A DNA stretch of 24,317 nucleotides from Escherichia phage CBA6: sequence record KM389296.1, one strand, 5' to 3'. How positions within the stretch are numbered: the first letter of the stretch is position 1; each line of letters begins with the position of its first letter. The notes under the pieces are model-generated. The model was not told the DNA's origin. It ran no database searches and was given only the letters and a program-made list of their open reading frames with translations. The position numbers were made by a program, and so were the translations under genes. Of this stretch, positions 467 through 24,317 are shown piece after piece.

Positions 467-2092
467 ATGGGTTTCAATATGTTAGACAACTTGCGTTGGT
501 TTTACGGGCGCGTTGAAGACGTGAACGATCCCGACCAGAACGGGCGCGTCGCTGTGCGCATCTATGGTGTACACACGGAAGATACCACTCTCTTACCTAC
601 CGAATTATTGCCTTGGGGTAAAATGCTCATGCCAGCATCTAACGCCTCCTCGGCAGGTTTAGGCTGGTCTCCAACGGGTATTACAGTCGGGTCGGATGTT
701 ATGGGATTTGCTTTGGATGAAGCATACCAAAATATTCGTATCGCCTGGGTTTGGCCAGCGGCGACACCAACGGATGGTTCAGACACAAACCCGTTGGCGC
801 TGGGCCAGGTTGTTCAATCTATAGAAAGACAGAAATATAACGCCGTTGAAAATGTTCCTGTCAAGATTGAAGACGACCCACAACCAGAACCTCAACCGCC
901 TGTGGACGGTTATGATCCTGAGAAATGGATGACAGTGGCTCGTGGTGAATTAGGTGTCAAAGAATATTCTGGCAAATTCAATAATAACCCAAGGATTTTG
1001 GAATATCACAAGACAACATCTTTGGGCGCTTCGGAAGATGAAGTCAGCTGGTGCGCTTCATTTGTGGGATGGGTGTTGATCCAAGCAGGATACACTTCAA
1101 CGCGCTCGGCTTTGGCTCGTTCATATTTGCAATGGGGTTCCCCTTTGTCGGAACCCCGCTACGGCGCTGTTGTTGTATTCCGGCGTGGCAACAACCCAAC
1201 ATTCGGACACGTTGCGTTCGTGCAGAAATTCGATGCCAATTATGTTTGGTGTATTGGAGGCAACCAATCAGATTCTGTGAAGGTGAGTCGCTTCAGCCGC
1301 TCATCTGTGTTGGGTTATCGTTGGCCTGGTCCTGCTACGACAGCATCGGCGGCTCCTGCGCAACAAAATGGTAAATGGTCTGAGCCAATCCCTGATCGTA
1401 CACCAAAAGTTCAGGAAACTCCGCCCCCTTCTGGGCGTGTTCAAGATATTGATAACACAGGAGAGGTGTCGGTTCCTTCTGCTGGCGGGTCTCGTTATCC
1501 TTACAACAATGTCATGGCATCTCGGTCAGGGCATATCATGGAGGTTGATGACACACCAGGCGGGGAACGTCTCCATTGGATGCACTCCTCGGGGTCTTAT
1601 AAGCAGATGCTTCCTGACGGGGACGTGGTCAATAAATCAGTCAAAGATCATTATGATCTGACGATGTTTGACAAACGTTACTATGTTGGTCGTGATCACA
1701 ACCTGACCATTGGTGGGACTGAAGTTCAGCGCAAGACAGGTGAGGTCTATCATCTACATTCATCGAACTACTCCAATGTGGTTGCTGGCACGGCGTTGAT
1801 GAAATTTTCACAGCTGGCCGAAATTCAGGCGCAAAACGTGATGCGTATCATCTGTGAGATGTTGGAAGTTTCCAATACTTTAAAAGTGCCTAAAATACTG
1901 GCGAGTGAAATAGTTTGTGATAAGTTGTCGGTGGCGCAGACTATTGAAGGCAACATCAAATATGCTGAAGGTGCTGGTCGTGCTGCATCACGCGCTGGGG
2001 CAACTCCAGTATCTACTTCTGGTCCTGGTCCAATTGATATAAAACCGGAACTGGAGGATAATGGCGGCAACTTTGGTGGTAAAGACGCATGA
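467..2092 (+). CDS. Baseplate central hub/spike protein (gp5-like) with cysteine-peptidase (CHAP/NlpC-P60-like) cell-wall hydrolase domain
   Basis: N-terminus MLDNLRWFYGRVEDVNDPDQNGRVAVRIYGVHTED resembles the gp5 N-terminal OB domain; Pro-rich linker; central Cys...His segment (VSWCASFVGWV ... GHVAFV) typical of CHAP/NlpC-P60 amidases; conserved-looking HIMEVDDTPGGERLHW segment. An alternative start at ATG 479 is possible. Confidence 0.8.
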   Translation: MGFNMLDNLRWFYGRVEDVNDPDQNGRVAVRIYGVHTEDTTLLPTELLPWGKMLMPASNASSAGLGWSPTGITVGSDVMGFALDEAYQNIRIAWVWPAATPTDGSDTNPLALGQVVQSIERQKYNAVENVPVKIEDDPQPEPQPPVDGYDPEKWMTVARGELGVKEYSGKFNNNPRILEYHKTTSLGASEDEVSWCASFVGWVLIQAGYTSTRSALARSYLQWGSPLSEPRYGAVVVFRRGNNPTFGHVAFVQKFDANYVWCIGGNQSDSVKVSRFSRSSVLGYRWPGPATTASAAPAQQNGKWSEPIPDRTPKVQETPPPSGRVQDIDNTGEVSVPSAGGSRYPYNNVMASRSGHIMEVDDTPGGERLHWMHSSGSYKQMLPDGDVVNKSVKDHYDLTMFDKRYYVGRDHNLTIGGTEVQRKTGEVYHLHSSNYSNVVAGTALMKFSQLAEIQAQNVMRIICEMLEVSNTLKVPKILASEIVCDKLSVAQTIEGNIKYAEGAGRAASRAGATPVSTSGPGPIDIKPELEDNGGNFGGKDA

Positions 2093-2156
2093 TTACACTG
2101 GCGAGGGTAGATAATGCCCTCTCGTGCCGGAGAGGCAATATCCAAAGGGGTTTAAC

Positions 2157-2537
2157 ATGAAAGAGTACAAGGACATTGACCTGAAGTTTGGCATGCATCC
2201 GGTCACCAAAGATGTCACAAAGAAAACAGGTGTCTATGCCGTGTTGCAATCCGTACGAAATATCGTGATGACAACAGTTGGGGATTGGCCGACATACCCA
2301 AGTATCGGGGCTGGGCTGTATACCATGCTGGGGGAAAATACGAATCCCACAATTCAGGTTGATGTTAAAAACAAAGTTGAAGACGCGATTGCTTTATTTG
2401 AACCGAGAGCGGAGATACAATCAGTTGATGTGTCATTGTCTGAAGATTATCATTCTCTGGGTGTAACCATAACGTTTTATGTGGTCAACAACCCAGAGCC
2501 GATAACAGATACCATATGGTTGAAACGGACAAATTAA
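2157..2537 (+). CDS. Baseplate wedge subunit gp25-like (126 aa)
   Basis: Size and layout match T4 gp25 (YKDIDLKF..., SVRNIVMTTVGDWPTYPSIG, C-terminal ITDTIWLKR). The track's 2124 start is GTG; ATG 2157 has an AAGGGG Shine-Dalgarno 8 nt upstream. Confidence 0.8.
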   Translation: MKEYKDIDLKFGMHPVTKDVTKKTGVYAVLQSVRNIVMTTVGDWPTYPSIGAGLYTMLGENTNPTIQVDVKNKVEDAIALFEPRAEIQSVDVSLSEDYHSLGVTITFYVVNNPEPITDTIWLKRTN

Positions 2538-9017: not shown

Positions 9018-9323
9018 TTAGATAGTTGACAAAAGAGTGTTCAGACTAACGATCTGCATTTGAATGCCTCTCTTCAGACTTTCATATGCCTCCACTGGTG
9101 AAGGCACGGAGTTAGATTGCTTATTCCCACCATAAGTCTGAGCCGACCAGCGGCCAGTGTCTTGCCAGTAGAAGAGGACGGCTGTTGACTCTCCGCTATC
9201 AATCATGATCGCCCCTACGCCATCAGGGTGATCTTTGAACAACTGATGCTTCCACTGCTTGCCTGTCTTTTCCTTCAGGAGGTGGCATGTTGCTTCGCCG
9301 ATTTGTTCGAGGGTCAGTTTCAT
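9018..9323 (-). CDS. Hypothetical protein (101 aa)
   Basis: ATG start overlapping the upstream stop (ATGA); no TM segment, so not a holin. Confidence 0.5.
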   Translation of the reverse strand: MKLTLEQIGEATCHLLKEKTGKQWKHQLFKDHPDGVGAIMIDSGESTAVLFYWQDTGRWSAQTYGGNKQSNSVPSPVEAYESLKRGIQMQIVSLNTLLSTI

Positions 9324-12360: not shown

Positions 12361-12382
12361 GATTGTTTCCTCAGAAAAAGAA

Positions 12383-12404
12383 ATCCCCCTGTATTTAGGG
12401 GGAT
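12383..12404 (-). terminator. Rho-independent terminator after the 190-aa gene
   Basis: Stem ATCCCCCT / AGGGGGAT with 6-nt loop; on the minus strand followed by TTCTTTTTCTG. Confidence 0.6.
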
Positions 12405-12420
12405 CTTCATTTCACCACGA

Positions 12421-12993: not shown

Positions 12994-13019
12994 GGATCTC
13001 CTAAGGATTTTGATGTATT

Positions 13020-13037
13020 TAGCCCCCGAAGGGGCTA
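13020..13037. terminator. Stable hairpin (CGAA/UUCG tetraloop) between the 906-aa and 190-aa genes
   Basis: Stem TAGCCCC / GGGGCTA; the T-tract (TGGTTTATTT) is on the plus side and is weaker on the minus side, so terminator versus processing site is unresolved. Confidence 0.45.
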
Positions 13038-13041
13038 TGGT

Positions 13042-15762
13042 TTATTTCAGACGGATCTGGAGATTACCACCCAGTGATTGTTCATATTCACTGTAAGCAC
13101 TGTCACCATTGCTCATAGCCCATTCGTCCGACTGACGGGCGCTATCCAAAGTCATGAGATTCGGTTCGGTCGGGTTGTATCCCTTCGCCTTCGCATCGTT
13201 GTATACCGTTTGCAGGTACTGGTTGGCACGGTTAATCTGATCTTTGAACTCACGATATGCACCTTCGGTTGTGTTGCGACGGAAGGTGATACTCCAATCG
13301 ACGTTAAGAACTGCGCCGCTATTGGTCACGTATACCTGCCAATCAAGATCTCGTCCGTTGGGAGCACTGTTGCGGATGGAATCGGAATATGTGGCCAGAT
13401 CGCTGCTGTTCTTGCCCCCAGCAGCTTGGTCTTTGGCGCGAGCCAGGGCATCAATGACTGCAGTGCGGTTTCTAGACTGCGCCAGATCTTTGTCTTGGAA
13501 CATAATTGCACCAAACTTACTGACGGTGATATCATTCAGAAACAGCTTGTTCGGGTTATAGTTTGATGAACTGAGATGGCTCAATTGAGCCGCAGCGTCT
13601 TTCAGGCGTTGTGAAGTCTCATTCAACGCATCTTGCACAGACTTGACAGATAACTGAATGTCATATCCGCTGCTGTTGACTACATTTCGGCCATTTTCGG
13701 TCAGCATGGTCGTGATGTTGGCCTTATTACGATCGAAGTCGTAAGTCACGTTCGTAACGAACCGTGCGGCTTGCAGCTGGCTACCCGCAGGGAACTGGAA
13801 GTCCCAAGCCACAGAGAACCCATGAACGGTTTCACCAAATATCTTCGCATTGCTTGGGGCTTTCAGGTTCGCAGTGATGACAGCGTTATCACTGGAATTT
13901 GTGTTGATTTCGCCGAAGATAGTCTTCCCATCAGAAGACTGGACCATCAGAGTATCTTTGCTGCGCCAGTCATAACGAACAATAAACGTCGTTCGAGGGA
14001 ACTCTTTTATCAGATCGAGTTTGACTGCCTTACCCAGAGTAAAACGATTTAACAATGCATCGGCGATCTTCAAAGTAAACGAAATACAATCGACATAAGA
14101 ATAACCCTGGGAACGGGAAACCTTTTGAATCGGGTATGGGGCACCGTTGATCGGAACAACACGACATTCCACTTCACCTTTGAACTGAGAATCAGCAGCG
14201 CGGGATATCGCACTGACGATTTCAAAAGCAGCGTTTTTCACGTCGCCTTCCAGCAGCAGCTGTTCATTGCCAGATAAATCAGAAACCACTTCTACAGAGA
14301 GTTTGCTGTTGACAATCCCCCAAAAATAGACTTGAATATCCAACCCGCCAGAAGTTCGATATTTGCCAGCACCAACCCGAGACAATTTTTCACCAGCATA
14401 CATGCCGACTTGCTGAGGAGCATATGTATCAACGATGCCCAAGATGCGGGCGATATAACCCTGGTTGCGCAGATCATCCATAGAACCGGTTTTTGGAAGA
14501 GTTTTCATGTCGACGGGAGCAGTAGCCCCTATTCCAAACTCGACGTATGCCACGATCTTCCCACCAGACTTCAGTTCCCAGCCCATTCCCTGACGGTCTG
14601 AAGCCGCCATGATTTTGCGATCCACTTCTCCACGCCCGACATATTCTTTGTTGAATACCGTCACTTGTGCGATAGACTGAGTGCGGGCAATCTTCGCCAT
14701 CGCGCCATCTTTGACCATGATAGCCAGGTCATTGGAACTCAGGGTCACGTCGTTCGCGCCGACCACCTTCACAACAGAACTGAAGATGCCGTTGGACTTT
14801 GCCATAACGGAGATGTTCCAGTCCGGATTTATGGAAGACGGTGCATCAGCATCAACGTCAACAGTCAAAACCACTTGCCCACCTTTCTTGAACACATACT
14901 GATCATAGATGCCTTTATTTTGTTTTGTCATGACAGCGCCGACCAGATCCTGGTTAGTGAATCCCCGCTTCATGCTCCATGCCACTTCGGTGCCGTCCGG
15001 ATATTTGTCGAAATCATACCCAAAGAACTTCGCCACTTCACGTGAGCCACTGACCAGCTGCACGTAATTTCCGCGAATTGGGTCACGGCCATTTTTCAGT
15101 TCAAGACTAGTGTCAGAACTGTTATACCATTGGCGGTTTACTTCAATCTCGGTGCTGGAGCCAGTCCCAACATCAGGGGTGTTGTTCTGAACCGGAACGT
15201 CTCCGACTTTGTCTGGATCGTCCCAAGTCACGCCTTTCATTTTCGGACCATCAAATACCTGAGCAGGATCCTTGCCTTTACGCACAACCCATACGAAGGC
15301 ACGGTCAGGGATTGGGGTATAAGTCAGATCCATGACGTTGAGTTTCTGCTTCAGACCAGATTGACGAATAATTTTTGGGAGTAACGTCGTTCCGCGTTCT
15401 AGAGCTTTCTTGGAGAAGTTAATCGCAAACCCATCAATGGTTTTACCCAGCGGTGTCGCCATGAATTGTTTAGTCGCTTCGATCATGGATGCGATGACAC
15501 GCATTGGGTTTTTGAAACGACCGATTGCGTCTGGATAGGTTGAACCACGTTTCTGGCCTATGAAGACCTGACGAACGTTCTTGCCCAGCCCCTGCGGGGT
15601 ATAAAATTGGATGCGGAATTCTTTTTCATCTTCGTCTACGAACGTGAAGAAAATGTCACCAGCATTTTTCTTGCCGAAAGTCAATTCGTATGGAGCGGAG
15701 TTAAACGCTTCGTCCAATTGTTTGGACTCGTCAAGGAAATTTAAGAAAGATTGGATGGCCAT
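13042..15762 (-). CDS. Large hypothetical protein (906 aa), function unknown
   Basis: Uninterrupted 2.7-kb ORF with ATG and AGGAG Shine-Dalgarno (AGGAGAATTACAATG); bracketed by hairpins; no catalytic motif recognised. Confidence 0.8.
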   Translation of the reverse strand: MAIQSFLNFLDESKQLDEAFNSAPYELTFGKKNAGDIFFTFVDEDEKEFRIQFYTPQGLGKNVRQVFIGQKRGSTYPDAIGRFKNPMRVIASMIEATKQFMATPLGKTIDGFAINFSKKALERGTTLLPKIIRQSGLKQKLNVMDLTYTPIPDRAFVWVVRKGKDPAQVFDGPKMKGVTWDDPDKVGDVPVQNNTPDVGTGSSTEIEVNRQWYNSSDTSLELKNGRDPIRGNYVQLVSGSREVAKFFGYDFDKYPDGTEVAWSMKRGFTNQDLVGAVMTKQNKGIYDQYVFKKGGQVVLTVDVDADAPSSINPDWNISVMAKSNGIFSSVVKVVGANDVTLSSNDLAIMVKDGAMAKIARTQSIAQVTVFNKEYVGRGEVDRKIMAASDRQGMGWELKSGGKIVAYVEFGIGATAPVDMKTLPKTGSMDDLRNQGYIARILGIVDTYAPQQVGMYAGEKLSRVGAGKYRTSGGLDIQVYFWGIVNSKLSVEVVSDLSGNEQLLLEGDVKNAAFEIVSAISRAADSQFKGEVECRVVPINGAPYPIQKVSRSQGYSYVDCISFTLKIADALLNRFTLGKAVKLDLIKEFPRTTFIVRYDWRSKDTLMVQSSDGKTIFGEINTNSSDNAVITANLKAPSNAKIFGETVHGFSVAWDFQFPAGSQLQAARFVTNVTYDFDRNKANITTMLTENGRNVVNSSGYDIQLSVKSVQDALNETSQRLKDAAAQLSHLSSSNYNPNKLFLNDITVSKFGAIMFQDKDLAQSRNRTAVIDALARAKDQAAGGKNSSDLATYSDSIRNSAPNGRDLDWQVYVTNSGAVLNVDWSITFRRNTTEGAYREFKDQINRANQYLQTVYNDAKAKGYNPTEPNLMTLDSARQSDEWAMSNGDSAYSEYEQSLGGNLQIRLK

Positions 15763-17573: not shown

Positions 17574-17639
17574 GATGGCGTTCCTTATGTGTTTGTCGAC
17601 TTGCAGCTCGATTGAGCCTCCTGACAGGGTTAAAAGATA

Positions 17640-17665
17640 AAGGGCACTTGATATTTAGTGCCCTT
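17640..17665 (-). terminator. Rho-independent terminator ending the recombination/late-sigma operon
   Basis: Stem AAGGGCACT / AGTGCCCTT with 8-nt loop; on the minus strand followed by TATCTTTTAACC. Confidence 0.6.
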
Positions 17666-17669
17666 CACC

Positions 17670-20907: not shown

Positions 20908-22023
20908 TTATGCATCCAATGTGTTCAGGCGTTGTTGGGCAGCATTATAGAATTGTTCTGCTAATTTGCAAACATTTTCAGGGCGCTGGATATTATTGGC
21001 GGCGCGGATATCTTTCTTTAGGACTTCCACAGCATCAGTCGCCACCATCTCTTCAGTGACTTCTACCTTCTCAGACGAGACTGTGATAGTCCGATCTATA
21101 AAGTTGTAATCGATGCATTTACAGCGCTTCAGCGCGTCGCAGAACTTTTCATAATGCTTGGCATTATCGCGGTTCTGTACAATCACTTTAACGATTTGCC
21201 CTTCAATACCCAAACCATTGTTTAGCCAATCTGGGTCAATCCAGTTTCCTTCGGTGTCGGAAGACATTTGGGTGTAGTCGTATTCGATGAATCGGAACAA
21301 CGTTTGTTGCTCGTTGTTGGGAATAAACAATTCCCCGCCTTTCATGTCGTCTACATAGAATCCTCGGTTCGTCCCGTCTTTATGGTCTTCCCAGGTAAGG
21401 TGATAAGGAGTCCCAATATACTGAATGTTACCTTCCATCGAACGGGTATGGAAATGTCCGGTATCCACGCGCTCGAACTTGGAAAGGAGCGCCAAGTCGA
21501 TCTGACCTTTATCACATACAGAGGACTGGTACATTTTGAACCCTGCCAACTCCAGATGCGCAAAACAGTACTTGGCGTCTGTATCTTGTATCGCTTTAAC
21601 AGATGCATCATAATTCTCTTTATTGATCCATGGGAGAAGCAATACCTTTTCGCCTTCAATCGAAACTTCAGTGGGTTCACTGTAATAATGATAGACGTCT
21701 GGCGCTAATTCATTCAGATAGGATGGCCAGTTGATACGGTTAGATTCTTCTAAGGTGATATCATGGTTTCCAACGATGCCATTCCATTTGATACCCGCCT
21801 TTCTCAGGGCTGGAGTCAGTTCATCTTTCAACCAATCTTTGTCGCGCCCGTACATAAATTTACGAACATCAAATGTGTCGCCGAATTGCCAAACTTCTTT
21901 AATGTCTGCATCTACCAATTCGGGAATAAAATAGTTGATGAGATAATTCTTTATGAATTCACGAACGTAACGGGAACCATTGCGGCTCCCGATGTGTAAA
22001 TCGCCAATTTTAGCAATCGCCAT
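20908..22023 (-). CDS. Recombination nuclease subunit (T4 gp47 / Mre11 / SbcD-like), 371 aa
   Basis: Calcineurin-like phosphoesterase motifs (IGDLHIG, GDTFD, GNHD, GHFH). The track's 22038 start is TTG; ATG 22023 has a GGAG Shine-Dalgarno. Confidence 0.9.
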   Translation of the reverse strand: MAIAKIGDLHIGSRNGSRYVREFIKNYLINYFIPELVDADIKEVWQFGDTFDVRKFMYGRDKDWLKDELTPALRKAGIKWNGIVGNHDITLEESNRINWPSYLNELAPDVYHYYSEPTEVSIEGEKVLLLPWINKENYDASVKAIQDTDAKYCFAHLELAGFKMYQSSVCDKGQIDLALLSKFERVDTGHFHTRSMEGNIQYIGTPYHLTWEDHKDGTNRGFYVDDMKGGELFIPNNEQQTLFRFIEYDYTQMSSDTEGNWIDPDWLNNGLGIEGQIVKVIVQNRDNAKHYEKFCDALKRCKCIDYNFIDRTITVSSEKVEVTEEMVATDAVEVLKKDIRAANNIQRPENVCKLAEQFYNAAQQRLNTLDA

Positions 22024-22780
22024 TATTCTTTTCTCCAACTGATTCGGCTAACAATGTGGGGCTGTCCATTATATCTTCAAGACTAAATTGAGTAGAGCCG
22101 AAGTCATTATCTGAATTATCTTCGGCGTCAGCGGTAATGGTATTTTCACTCTTCGTAAGACATTGAAGTATACCGCGAGGGATTTTCTTATTCTTTTCCT
22201 CTTCTTTGATAGCCGTTTGTTTTTGGCGTTCCTTTTCACGCTGGGCTTCTTTCTTATTTTCGAAATTACCGATGCGTTCACGAAAGTCCATCGTTATCCC
22301 AGTGCTATCAACGAAGGTTTGTTGTTGGAAGTCTGGGTCATCCGATAAAGCTGCGAACCCACCTGCTTCTTCAAAGGAACGCAATTTAATATAGTTGTGT
22401 TCTTCTTCACTCGTGAGTTTCTTGGCGAATGAGCGATCAGCACACATAGTCACCCAAGAGAAGAAGTTGATCTTTCCTTTCTTGCCGATATGGCTAACAT
22501 CAAAGGTGTGAAGGTAACGAAGGATGTTCACAACCGCTTCACTCACCATGTCTTCACGATATGGATAATCACGGTAGTTGTAGCGCATACTCATATTCTT
22601 GATTATCATCTGAACATTCATGGCCACATAATTGGGGATTCTTGGTAGGGGTGTTCCTTCGGCTAATGCCTTTTTACGAGCAGGGATCCAATCACGCAAT
22701 ATCCCCACAACTCGATCGTTATCTTCGTCAGTGAAATATTTGGTGACGTTATCACCCCTGTCTACAAAATTCATACCCAT
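22010..22780 (-). CDS. Late-transcription sigma factor (T4 gp55-like) with extended charged C-terminus
   Basis: Collinear with recalled T4 gp55 (ILRDWI; YVAMNVQMIIKNMSMRYNYRDY...LHTFD; NFFSWVTMCADRSFAKKL); position next to gp47/gp46 as in T4. The track's 22795 start is TTG; ATG 22780 has a GAGGA Shine-Dalgarno. Confidence 0.7.
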   Translation of the reverse strand: MGMNFVDRGDNVTKYFTDEDNDRVVGILRDWIPARKKALAEGTPLPRIPNYVAMNVQMIIKNMSMRYNYRDYPYREDMVSEAVVNILRYLHTFDVSHIGKKGKINFFSWVTMCADRSFAKKLTSEEEHNYIKLRSFEEAGGFAALSDDPDFQQQTFVDSTGITMDFRERIGNFENKKEAQREKERQKQTAIKEEEKNKKIPRGILQCLTKSENTITADAEDNSDNDFGSTQFSLEDIMDSPTLLAESVGEKNNGDC

Positions 22781-22791
22781 CGTGATAATCC

Positions 22792-23319
22792 TCAAATACC
22801 AATGAATTCATTGAAAGAACCAACAACCTTTCTGACCAGGAAACGATTATTTTCAAGAACCATCGAGCTATTTTCTTTGGCTCTGACGCTCCACTGATCT
22901 GCGATTTCGTTGCCGATATTCCCCGCATGACCTTTCACCCATTTTAATTCAAGTTCACAAATTGAACAAACTTTGTCATAATAATTGAACAATTCGAGTA
23001 GGAGTTCTGTGTTCTTAGGCGGCATCCCTTCATATTCCCATTTTCTACGCCACTCCAAAACACTATTGATAACATATTGGCTATCGGATATAATACGGGC
23101 TGGGGGAATACAGCGTTCACCGCAATTCGAGAATTTCCATAGAATCTTCAAGGCGTTTATAACCCCAAGCAACTCAGCGATATTATTCGTTGACGGTGGG
23201 GGTAAATACCCATAAAACACTTTCCATTGCTCTCCAGTGATTGGACTGATAGCAAATGCCCAACCTGCGGCTTGTGTCTTCTGCGGGGAAGATGCCCCGT
23301 CAGTGTATATTTCAATCAT
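22792..23319 (-). CDS. rnhA: Ribonuclease HI (bacterial RnhA-type)
   Basis: Catalytic motifs IYTDGA, NNIAELLGVINAL, SDSQYVINSV, WVKGHAGNIGNEIAD. The track's 23334 start is TTG; first ATG is 23319. Confidence 0.8.
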   Translation of the reverse strand: MIEIYTDGASSPQKTQAAGWAFAISPITGEQWKVFYGYLPPPSTNNIAELLGVINALKILWKFSNCGERCIPPARIISDSQYVINSVLEWRRKWEYEGMPPKNTELLLELFNYYDKVCSICELELKWVKGHAGNIGNEIADQWSVRAKENSSMVLENNRFLVRKVVGSFNEFIGI

Positions 23320-23361
23320 GTATAAGTATCCCAAACTGGTTTTATCGATGAGGAACGAATC

Positions 23362-24129
23362 ATGTCAGAACGCGCATATCGTTTCAGTCTGACCGCCCCA
23401 GAAATTGAGCGTTTGCTCTTGTCTATAAATGATTCCATACAAAAGCTGGACATCGTTTATGACTACACGGCGGGTGGGACTGAAGGTCAAGTCGCAGCTG
23501 CGTCAGCTGTCAAAAACATGTGGCTAAAACTCAATGAGATGGTCACAGGTGAAGGTCTTAAAGACGCAATCAATGCAGCTAACGACAGCAACGTATTCAC
23601 CGATTATTATAAGTCTATTTTAGATCGCGAAACCTGGAAATTTATTGGTTCTCCAGCTGATTTATTAGCACGTGATGATATAGACACTTCTAATTTTGAA
23701 GGCGGTGAAGTAATCCTTCTGCAAAAGAACGCTTCGGGTAATCCAGAATTCCAATACTGGAAGAGAACTCCCGTGGCGGGAGGAGATCCAACATTTGGTT
23801 GGGCTTCAGTATATGAGGGCAATTCCAACGACTCTGCTATTGATATCCCTGTTGTCGGAACCAGCATACTGAAAACAATCCCAAAAGCATTGTTCCATAT
23901 GATAGAATTCCGAGTACATGCTCATGAATCCACGTTAGGCCATTGGCAGGATACTGATGGTAAAGTCGGATACCGTGGTGAAGATTTGATATACAGCCTG
24001 TACAACCACGTTCAGACTAAACCAATAGCAAATATATCTTTCAGCCAAGATGTGGATAATATGATCATCACGATAACGACACTTGAACCAAATATCAAGT
24101 GCCATTTATCGTTTATTGCAGGTTATTAA
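23362..24129 (+). CDS. Hypothetical protein (255 aa)
   Basis: ATG with GAGGAA Shine-Dalgarno 6 nt upstream; only plus-strand gene in the right half; stop overlaps the convergent minus gene; no recognisable motif. Confidence 0.6.
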   Translation: MSERAYRFSLTAPEIERLLLSINDSIQKLDIVYDYTAGGTEGQVAAASAVKNMWLKLNEMVTGEGLKDAINAANDSNVFTDYYKSILDRETWKFIGSPADLLARDDIDTSNFEGGEVILLQKNASGNPEFQYWKRTPVAGGDPTFGWASVYEGNSNDSAIDIPVVGTSILKTIPKALFHMIEFRVHAHESTLGHWQDTDGKVGYRGEDLIYSLYNHVQTKPIANISFSQDVDNMIITITTLEPNIKCHLSFIAGY

Positions 24130-24317
24130 ACTTCAAATACTGCATCGGTGAACCAGGTTGGGAAGAACTCTGGGTTGCGCATCATAAGAGATTCAAAGGA
24201 AGAATCGATTATGTATGTTGCAGCCCAGTCATCCACACCCCTGACCGAACGTCCGCACATCTGAACAATGCGCAATACTGCGTTGCGGAAGTACGCAGAC
24301 GGATCCACTGAATTAAT
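24126..24317 (-). CDS. C-terminal fragment of an SF2 helicase-like protein (DinG/XPD-type motif VI), truncated by window edge
   Basis: QMCGRSVRGVDDWAATYIIDSSF resembles helicase motif VI (QxxGRxxR...D); the ORF runs to the window edge. Confidence 0.4.
   Translation of the reverse strand: MNSVDPSAYFRNAVLRIVQMCGRSVRGVDDWAATYIIDSSFESLMMRNPEFFPTWFTDAVFEV

Follow-up and report, generated by a model that had tools for sequence, protein, structure and literature searches.

In bacteriophage T4, the trimeric baseplate protein gp9 fastens the wedge and the long tail fibres together and contributes to the triggering of contraction, and in the gp9 structure the N-terminal region is a single coiled-coil helix. 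Late promoters of the T4 type are just an 8-bp -10 box, TATAAATA, which is read by gp55 together with gp33 and the gp45 clamp (PMC3184105). For the Ackermannviridae, a review describes gp9-gp11 as absent (PMC11721090), and no baseplate protein is named as the partner of the TSP4 anchor domain (PMC8825819). The gene considered in the present work, the virion location of its product and its predicted late promoter are already known from LIMEstone1, for which they were described in 2012, with support for Kuttervirus following in 2024.

The window analysed here is a stretch of 24,317 nucleotides from Escherichia phage CBA6 (record KM389296.1), which megablast assigns to Kuttervirus (Ackermannviridae) with 98-99% identity to Salmonella phages Vi01 and SeF3a. 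Near its right end an open reading frame (ORF) on the plus strand diverges from an RNase HI gene and converges on a helicase gene. The features of this region, in positions of the window, are as follows.

22792 to 23319, minus strand: RNase HI gene, which heads the minus-strand run RNase H - gp55 late sigma - gp47 - gp46 (Pfam RNase_H, E 5.6e-25; Vi01 annotation)

23320 to 23361, both strands: divergent spacer of 42 nt, holding on the plus strand the late box, the presumed transcription start and the Shine-Dalgarno sequence of the ORF, and on the minus strand the 5' leader of RNase HI

23321 to 23328, plus strand: late-promoter-like -10 box TATAAGTA (T4 consensus TATAAATA), 33 nt upstream of the ATG

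23350 to 23354, plus strand: Shine-Dalgarno sequence GAGGA, 7 nt 5' of the ATG, as read from the sequence

23362 to 24129, plus strand: coding sequence of the 255-residue virion protein, stop codon included (Vi01_105, LIMEstone1 ORF093, Sajous1 gp203)

23362 to 23631, plus strand: codons 1-90, helical N-terminal region with helices at 12-25, 47-61, 63-72 and 81-89 (AF2 model, pLDDT mostly 55-79)

23641 to 23811, plus strand: codons 94-150, small middle beta domain with F94, G96, R104, G114, E116 and W147 (AF2 model and alignment)

23836 to 24123, plus strand: codons 159-254, eight-stranded beta-sandwich, homologue of the gp9 C-terminal domain (pLDDT 94-97)

24126 to 24129, both strands: TTAA, shared by two stop codons, the TAA of the ORF at 24127-24129 (plus) and the TAA of the helicase gene at 24128-24126 (minus)

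24126 to 24317, minus strand: 3' end of the convergent DinG/Rad3-type helicase gene (Vi01_106c), cut at the window end (Pfam Helicase_C_2, E 5.4e-6; PHROG 2488, E 3e-30; Vi01 annotation)

An earlier reading of the window, made from the sequence alone (the sequence-only reading), had described the ORF as the only plus-strand gene in the right 20 kb, and this is what it is: to the right of position 2537, the remaining plus-strand ORFs of at least 90 residues are all nested within longer minus-strand genes. The annotation of Vi01 has the same pattern: 105 is the single plus-strand gene there amid 078c-104c and 106c, which are all minus-strand. The 42-nt gap that was reported between the ORF and the divergent RNase H gene is likewise found when RNase HI is taken to start at the ATG at 23319, as it is annotated in Vi01 (position 71005), LIMEstone1 and others; a mechanical ORF listing starts the RNase H ORF further upstream, at a TTG at 23334 that has no Shine-Dalgarno sequence. 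At the other end of the ORF, the stop codon does overlap that of the convergent helicase gene as had been noticed, and an identical overlap of 4 nt appears in the annotations of Vi01, LIMEstone1, Ag3, FKP10 and Det7.

The ORF listing places the ATG of the ORF as the first start codon past the upstream in-frame stop, and therefore no 5' extension is possible; the alternative that the ORF is a mis-framed part of a longer gene, which the sequence-only reading had raised against itself, is ruled out on the same grounds. The Shine-Dalgarno sequence is kept as GAGGA or AGAGGAA in other genera. Some records carry longer annotations of this gene (308, 280 and 279 residues), and these are probably upstream start choices, because the ATG is the first after the stop and because almost all homologues have 254-257 residues. 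The product has a calculated mass of 28.34 kDa and a pI of 4.8.

The ORF had also been called an orphan whose product has no recognisable motif. The absence of a motif is borne out by Pfam, NCBIfam and PDB sequence searches with the ORF or a shallow family profile, which gave nothing meaningful (the ORF has no Pfam match at E <= 1, and no PDB chain matching its sequence was found), but not by PHROG 3833, which the ORF matches over its full length (residues 1-255 on profile positions 1-255 of 255, E 1.2e-164). The term orphan has to be abandoned, given homologues in 357 phage records (tblastn), synteny that is conserved from Kuttervirus to the Vibrio Ackermannviridae, and the virion proteomics described below. 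Amino acid identity is 97-100% to the Kuttervirus orthologues and declines from 100% to 27-35% in the Vibrio Ackermannviridae, and an HMM search of 1.84 billion representative proteins returned 81 relatives, mostly of about 250 residues. The gene order gp46-gp47-gp55-RNase H (minus), ORF (plus), helicase (minus) is kept in Kuttervirus, Limestonevirus, Agtrevirus, Taipeivirus and Miltonvirus, and the opposite-strand position between RNase HI and the helicase is seen in Vi01, LIMEstone1, Ag3, FKP10, 3M and Det7. Two Vibrio phages retain the gene order with one additional gene between the ORF and the helicase; in the Acinetobacter clade alone the gene is co-oriented with its neighbours, which are different ones. 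A distant homologue, P0039, lies in a same-strand topoisomerase neighbourhood that is functionally uninformative.

Between genera, dN is 0.04-0.34 and dS is at or near saturation in most pairs, and in the one clearly unsaturated pair dN/dS is 0.087. In a five-genus alignment 49% of nucleotide columns are invariant, as against 18% of third positions. By these measures the ORF is under strong purifying selection, and genome comparison marks it as a real conserved gene of Vi01-like phages, so that the check on conservation proposed with the sequence-only reading comes out in favour of the gene. Public names for it are inconsistent (hypothetical, structural, baseplate wedge, DNA-binding, head and packaging), and Vi01_105 is annotated as a 'conserved phage associated protein'.

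That the product is a virion protein is shown by published mass spectrometry on orthologues. LIMEstone1 ORF093, Sajous1 gp203 and Vi01_105 have 83-100% amino acid identity and share flanking genes, orientation and late-box position; Sajous1 gp203 is the same gene, with 99.6% nucleotide identity across the tested region. In LIMEstone1 virions, ORF93 was detected at 28.32 kDa with 40.78% coverage and 8 unique peptides (PMC3296691), and the record of that phage lists ORF093 as 'unknown structural protein; confirmed structural protein'. In CsCl-purified Sajous1 virions, gp203 gave 39 spectra, against 33 for the neck protein, 24 for the baseplate tail tube protein and 924 for the capsid protein (PMC10892097). 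For phage ViI, presence in the virion is based on the record wording 'phage associated protein' and on the statement in the LIMEstone paper that every unknown structural protein of LIMEstone1 has a structural counterpart in ViI (PMC3296691). Virion mass spectrometry is silent on the place of the protein within the particle.

An AF2 model built from a 37-sequence alignment (mean pLDDT 80.8, pTM 0.43) divides the product into the three regions listed above, with the C-terminal sandwich spanning residues 158-255 in the model. The helical N-terminal region is common to the N-termini of longer tail-fibre-like proteins (profile matches P0086, P0095, P0098, P0114, P0115 and P0101) and includes the motif DSNVFTDxxKxxL, which long proteins carry in repeated copies. 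Residues 1-150 have sequence homologues at the N-terminal end of fibre-like proteins of 407-628 residues, one of which, P0115, carries BppL_N. The middle beta domain contains most of the invariant residues of the family.

A Foldseek search of the PDB with the model gave T4 gp9 as the best match (1qex_A, E 5.4e-8, 268 columns) and gp9 again as the next (9f4a_LA), with a whole-chain TM-score between the model and gp9 that is low, at 0.36. In BFVD, the entries that follow the family's own members are named 'Gp9plus10' and 'baseplate wedge tail fiber connector'. At the profile level, hhalign of a deep profile of 51 representatives (A4) against a gp9 alignment (A3) gave a probability of 94.3% (E 1e-7), with ORF residues 159-254 placed on gp9 177-280, so that the C-terminal domain alone is aligned; with the ORF against T4 gp9 alone (0.9%) and with the shallow profile A2 (5%), hhalign was non-significant. 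PF23618 (T4_gp9_10_C) is the sole Pfam family that matches several members, with weak, sub-threshold matches in 4 of the 51, and PF07880 (T4_gp9_10) gave no match for the ORF or among the 51 family members. The HMM and structure searches that the sequence-only reading had recommended thus produced a link to gp9 by way of the deep profile and Foldseek, and none by way of Pfam with the ORF alone. Profile comparison shows the C-terminal domain of the ORF product to be homologous to that of T4 gp9 (residues 177-280; Pfam T4_gp9_10_C), and the product is most likely a distant relative of this baseplate protein, with homology established for the C-terminal domain only.

The spacer upstream of the ORF contains a late-type box, TATAAGTA, which begins 2 nt past the RNase H start codon on the opposite strand and differs from the T4 consensus in one position. 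It occurs as a single copy in the window, in which TATAAATA itself does not occur. At the same position, the exact TATAAATA is present in LIMEstone1, Ag3, FKP10 and Serratia phage 3M, which represent four other genera, while Det7 has TATAAGTA and the Vibrio phages have TCTAAATA or CCTAAGTA; the LIMEstone1 record annotates a 'putative late promoter' just 5' of the orthologous gene. The evidence for the box lies in its position and cross-genus conservation and not in its abundance: a degenerate form, whose consensus was derived after inspection of the data, is not enriched by count within the window (5 found, 4.97 expected). Since a late promoter is a -10 box without a -35 element, a spacer of 42 nt is large enough for it, and since a late-type box lies inside the spacer, the promoters within coding sequence that the sequence-only reading had supposed on account of the short gap are not needed for the plus-strand gene. 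The literature searched contained no Ackermannviridae transcriptomes or mapped start sites, and the late timing and the start site of the plus-strand gene are accordingly given here as predictions.

The same type of box was followed across the Vi01 genome, assembled for this purpose from four fetched pieces. The exact TATAAATA lies 26-34 nt upstream of gene starts in all four cases in which it occurs. The hexamer TAAATA is found 15-50 nt 5' of a Shine-Dalgarno sequence and start codon in 45% of its 58 occurrences and CTAAATA at such a position in 70%, compared with a background of 5% and with 6-21% for control AT-rich hexamers. Boxes of the form (C/A)TAAATA(C/T)C precede gp48, gp22, gp18, gp14 and gp6, as well as three tail-spike genes and several 'phage associated' proteins, and the major capsid gene gp23 has CTAAGTAA, with the same A-to-G variant as the box of the ORF. 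These distributions suggest that the Kuttervirus late-promoter consensus is (C/A)TAAATA(C/T)C and not the T4 octamer TATAAATA. Vi01 has further lone opposite-strand late genes, namely 033c (annotated as head completion/closure) and 066 (baseplate tail tube protein), of which the latter, a lone inverted gene, has an exact TATAAATA.

Transcription in the minus direction is a separate question. The 42-nt spacer contains no terminator hairpin and no sigma-70-like promoter, and a terminator-plus-promoter pattern is present in many other minus-strand gaps of the window. A scan of 22600-24317 for sigma-70 promoters and terminators gave matches at chance level, including none resembling a terminator hairpin at the convergent junction; inside the ORF, the minus strand has a single weak sigma-70-like match (9/12). 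An element embedded within the ORF was looked for in five genera, where there is no invariant nucleotide run of at least 11 and third positions near the 5' end vary freely. The Vi01 genome has a strong hairpin 5' of the helicase gene, in a part that is beyond the window. The simpler reading is that transcription of the RNase H/gp55/gp47/gp46 run would come from the helicase unit by read-through, antisense to the ORF, and that the late plus-strand transcript would extend antisense into the helicase gene up to a hairpin of the Vi01 type. For the minus-strand genes, promoters within coding sequence are conceivable, with no support for them found, and for the plus-strand gene the proposal is displaced by the box in the spacer.

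The ORF is probably a late, gp55-dependent gene, and its product a gp9-like peripheral baseplate or fibre-connector protein; within this reading, the late timing, the gp55 dependence, the trimeric state, the baseplate location and the binding partner are what we infer. Once DNA replication has begun, host RNA polymerase with gp55 would recognize TATAAGTA at 23321-23328, with gp55, which is encoded two genes away (22010-22795, Vi01_103c by record annotation and phrog_234 in SeF3a), acting together with the homologues of gp33 and gp45 (Vi01_069c and Vi01_135c in the annotation of the Vi01 records), and the transcript of the ORF would start a few bases 3' of the box. Vi01-like genomes, like that of T4, place isolated late genes inverted within pre-replicative runs, and the ORF would oppose its neighbours because these are pre-replicative genes of replication and recombination. 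The acidic 28-kDa product would form a trimer at the baseplate periphery, anchored by its fibre-type N-terminus and displaying its gp9-like C-terminal domain, and would link the tail-spike or fibre apparatus to the baseplate wedge, a role that gp9 has towards the long tail fibres in T4. A more specific proposal, which is possible although doubtful, is that the product is the gp9 equivalent of the Ackermannviridae, a trimeric adaptor whose N-terminus inserts into the wedge and whose C-terminal domain docks the TSP4 anchor domain. If so, it would carry the entire branched complex of tail spikes and couple the binding of a receptor to contraction of the sheath; it would also correct the claim that the gp9-gp11 periphery is missing (PMC11721090) and supply the baseplate partner of TSP4 (PMC8825819).

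An alternative is a location elsewhere in the particle, where the protein, for example a head-associated one or a short fibre of the collar or whisker type, would reuse a widespread fibre beta-sandwich and have no gp9-like connector role. The module of about 100 residues does turn up across many unrelated tail-fibre-like proteins in BFVD, the first 150 residues are found again at the N-terminus of long fibre-like proteins such as P0114 and P0115 (the latter with BppL_N), one pharokka-style record lists the gene under 'head and packaging', and the gene is remote from the baseplate cluster. Such a location is nevertheless unlikely, because each of two independent structure searches gives gp9 proteins as the best match to the whole chain, because the profile-profile match is specific for the C-terminal domain of the gp9 family, and because the Sajous1 count of 39 is similar to those of neck, tail and baseplate proteins and far below the 924 of the capsid protein. 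It is scarcely credible that the product is instead a non-structural protein, for example a DNA-binding one, which acts with the replication and recombination genes that surround it and contaminates virions, as might be argued from this neighbourhood, from the name 'putative DNA-binding protein' in one GenBank record and from the low counts at which some replication proteins also appear in virion proteomes. The protein reached high coverage and spectral counts in independent virion preparations of two phages that belong to different genera, the product is acidic (pI 4.8) and has no nucleic-acid-binding domain in Pfam or NCBIfam, its fold is gp9-like, and its gene is inverted relative to those neighbours and preceded by a late box.

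The original picture of an orphan in a tight divergent pair, with both promoters buried in adjacent coding sequence, draws on the spacer of just 42 nt, on the remark of Kutter et al. that wherever transcription diverges in CBA120 there must be promoters, as yet unidentified, for both directions (PMC3184105), and on the failure of the present analysis to find a promoter for the RNase H run. It is very improbable in view of the correctly spaced late-type box within the spacer, which is conserved across genera, and of the ORF itself, which has no conserved nucleotide block and offers one weak minus-strand sigma-70-like match; with homologues and virion detection, moreover, the gene is no orphan. 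On the reading of the ORF as a late gene for a gp9-like protein, the inverted ORF is an ordinary T4-style arrangement of a late gene among early replication genes.

What the present work adds to the earlier descriptions is the recognition that a 42-nt divergent spacer suffices when the late promoter is a mere -10 box, the profile-level tie of the C-terminal domain to T4 gp9, and the suggestion of a revised late-promoter consensus for Kuttervirus. The link to gp9 favours 'gp9-like baseplate protein' in place of the inconsistent names under which hundreds of GenBank entries carry this gene, and it yields a candidate baseplate partner for the tail-spike complex. The significance beyond annotation is small.

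Compared with the late units of T4, the ORF has the same elements: an 8-bp box of the -10 type, with no -35 element, lies about 30 nt 5' of the start codon, homologues of gp55, gp33 and gp45 are annotated in Vi01, and the gene is inverted relative to the pre-replicative genes around it, as is Vi01_066. It differs in the box itself, which is TATAAGTA, and in the Kuttervirus consensus, which as predicted from the genome is apparently (C/A)TAAATA(C/T)C, unlike that of T4 (PMC3184105). With phage tail fibres and spikes (Kp9 gp42, Acinetobacter phage tail spikes and the BppL_N proteins) the product shares the N-terminal homology over residues 1-150, but a long shaft, a beta-helix and an enzymatic or receptor-binding body are all absent from it, and unlike them it ends directly in the gp9-like domain.

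The resemblance to T4 gp9 (PDB 1QEX) extends to length (255 residues, compared with 288), apparently to the domain order as predicted by the AF2 model, in which a helical N-terminus is followed by a beta domain and an eight-stranded C-terminal beta domain, and to the occurrence of both proteins in the virions of T4-related phages with contractile tails. The differences are that the N-terminus of the ORF product consists of four helices and is of the fibre-N-terminus type, that its middle domain is about half the size of gp9 XD1, and that its gene lies outside the baseplate cluster: T4 has the order 7-8-9-10-11-12, whereas the ORF is flanked by the RNase H gene and the helicase gene, some 60 kb away from where Vi01 has its gp6/tail-spike cluster. 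The putative partner of the ORF product, finally, is the tail spikes and not, as for gp9, the long tail fibres.

Apart from the open reading frame (ORF) at 23362..24129, the sole plus-strand genes in the window are gp5 and gp25. The features considered here are as follows, with window coordinates except where Vi01 is named.

467-2537, plus strand: gp5 (hub and lysozyme) and gp25, late baseplate genes
12361-12420, 12994-13041 and 17574-17669, minus strand: hairpins with late-type boxes
12391-12398, 13015-13022 and 23321-23329: putative late-promoter box sites
13042-15762, minus strand: maximal ORF of 906 aa
23317-23334: alternative RNase HI starts
23542-23631: segment GEGLKDAINAANDSNVFTDYYKSILDRE, codons 61-90 of the ORF 23362..24129
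Vi01 73585-73610 (9200-9225 of the fetched piece L001), just beyond the window: strong bidirectional hairpin AAAGCCGAGG-N6-CCTCGGCTTT
Vi01 (NC_015296, pieces L011/L012): inverted-repeat leaders upstream of Vi01_171c, 172c and 173c (tail spikes), 183 and 142c

In Vi01, gp5 is preceded by a CATAAATA box, in keeping with a rule by which the genes read from the plus strand in this region are late. A late transcript of the ORF 23362..24129 would cross the helicase gene in antisense for 1.7 kb before reaching its first terminator-like site, the bidirectional hairpin, which lies between that gene and Vi01_107c. At the other end of the ORF, the opposite-strand late box begins two bases past the ATG at 23319, which is the RNase HI start in Vi01 and LIMEstone1; a TTG start at 23334 results from a mechanical ORF call, and the longer form is also annotated in SeF3a.

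GenBank records disagree on the name of the Vi01_105 orthologues, which appear as hypothetical protein, putative structural protein, virion structural protein (head and packaging), baseplate wedge protein or putative DNA-binding protein, and in some of these records upstream starts extend the product to 279-308 aa. The N-terminal segment of the ORF product matches a unit (for example, DAEIRTAIExALDSNVFTDDEKTKLNDIE) that occurs 4-9 times in long metagenome proteins (378-2407 aa; P0101-P0121 of the profile search), for which Pfam gave only hits below the domain threshold (DUF2922, Lectin_like). The length or start choice of another virion-associated protein, 094c, may also vary among close relatives: it is annotated as a 'phage associated protein' of 799 aa in Vi01, as against the 906-aa maximal ORF in the window, and the window itself aligns with Vi01 in several pieces at 97% coverage.

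In several late-gene leaders of Vi01, the late box and the bases immediately 5' of the ATG make up an inverted repeat (in one instance, AATACCCCATA...TATGGGGTATT-ATC-ATG), which, in leaders that lack a canonical SD, may form a hairpin acting on translation or mRNA stability. The ORF 23362..24129 is without such an inverted-repeat leader. On the minus strand of the window, GC-rich terminator-like hairpins contain or directly precede late-type boxes (for example, GATCCCCCTAAATACAGGGGGATTTCTTTTT, GGGCACTAAATATCAAGTGCCCTTTATC and GCCCCTTCGGGGGCTAAATAC). These look like compact terminator-plus-late-promoter units, and the minus-strand genes that follow them include the orthologue of Vi01_093c ('phage associated protein').

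The 2011 paper on CBA120 had left the late consensus of this phage family unidentified (PMC3184105). In a survey of the Vi01 genome (NC_015296, loci L010-L013), exact TATAAATA occurs only 4 times in the whole 157 kb, most structural genes are preceded by CTAAATA, and the box of the major capsid gene is CTAAGTAA. The Kuttervirus late-promoter box appears to be (C/A)TAAATA(C/T)C, which differs from the T4 octamer.
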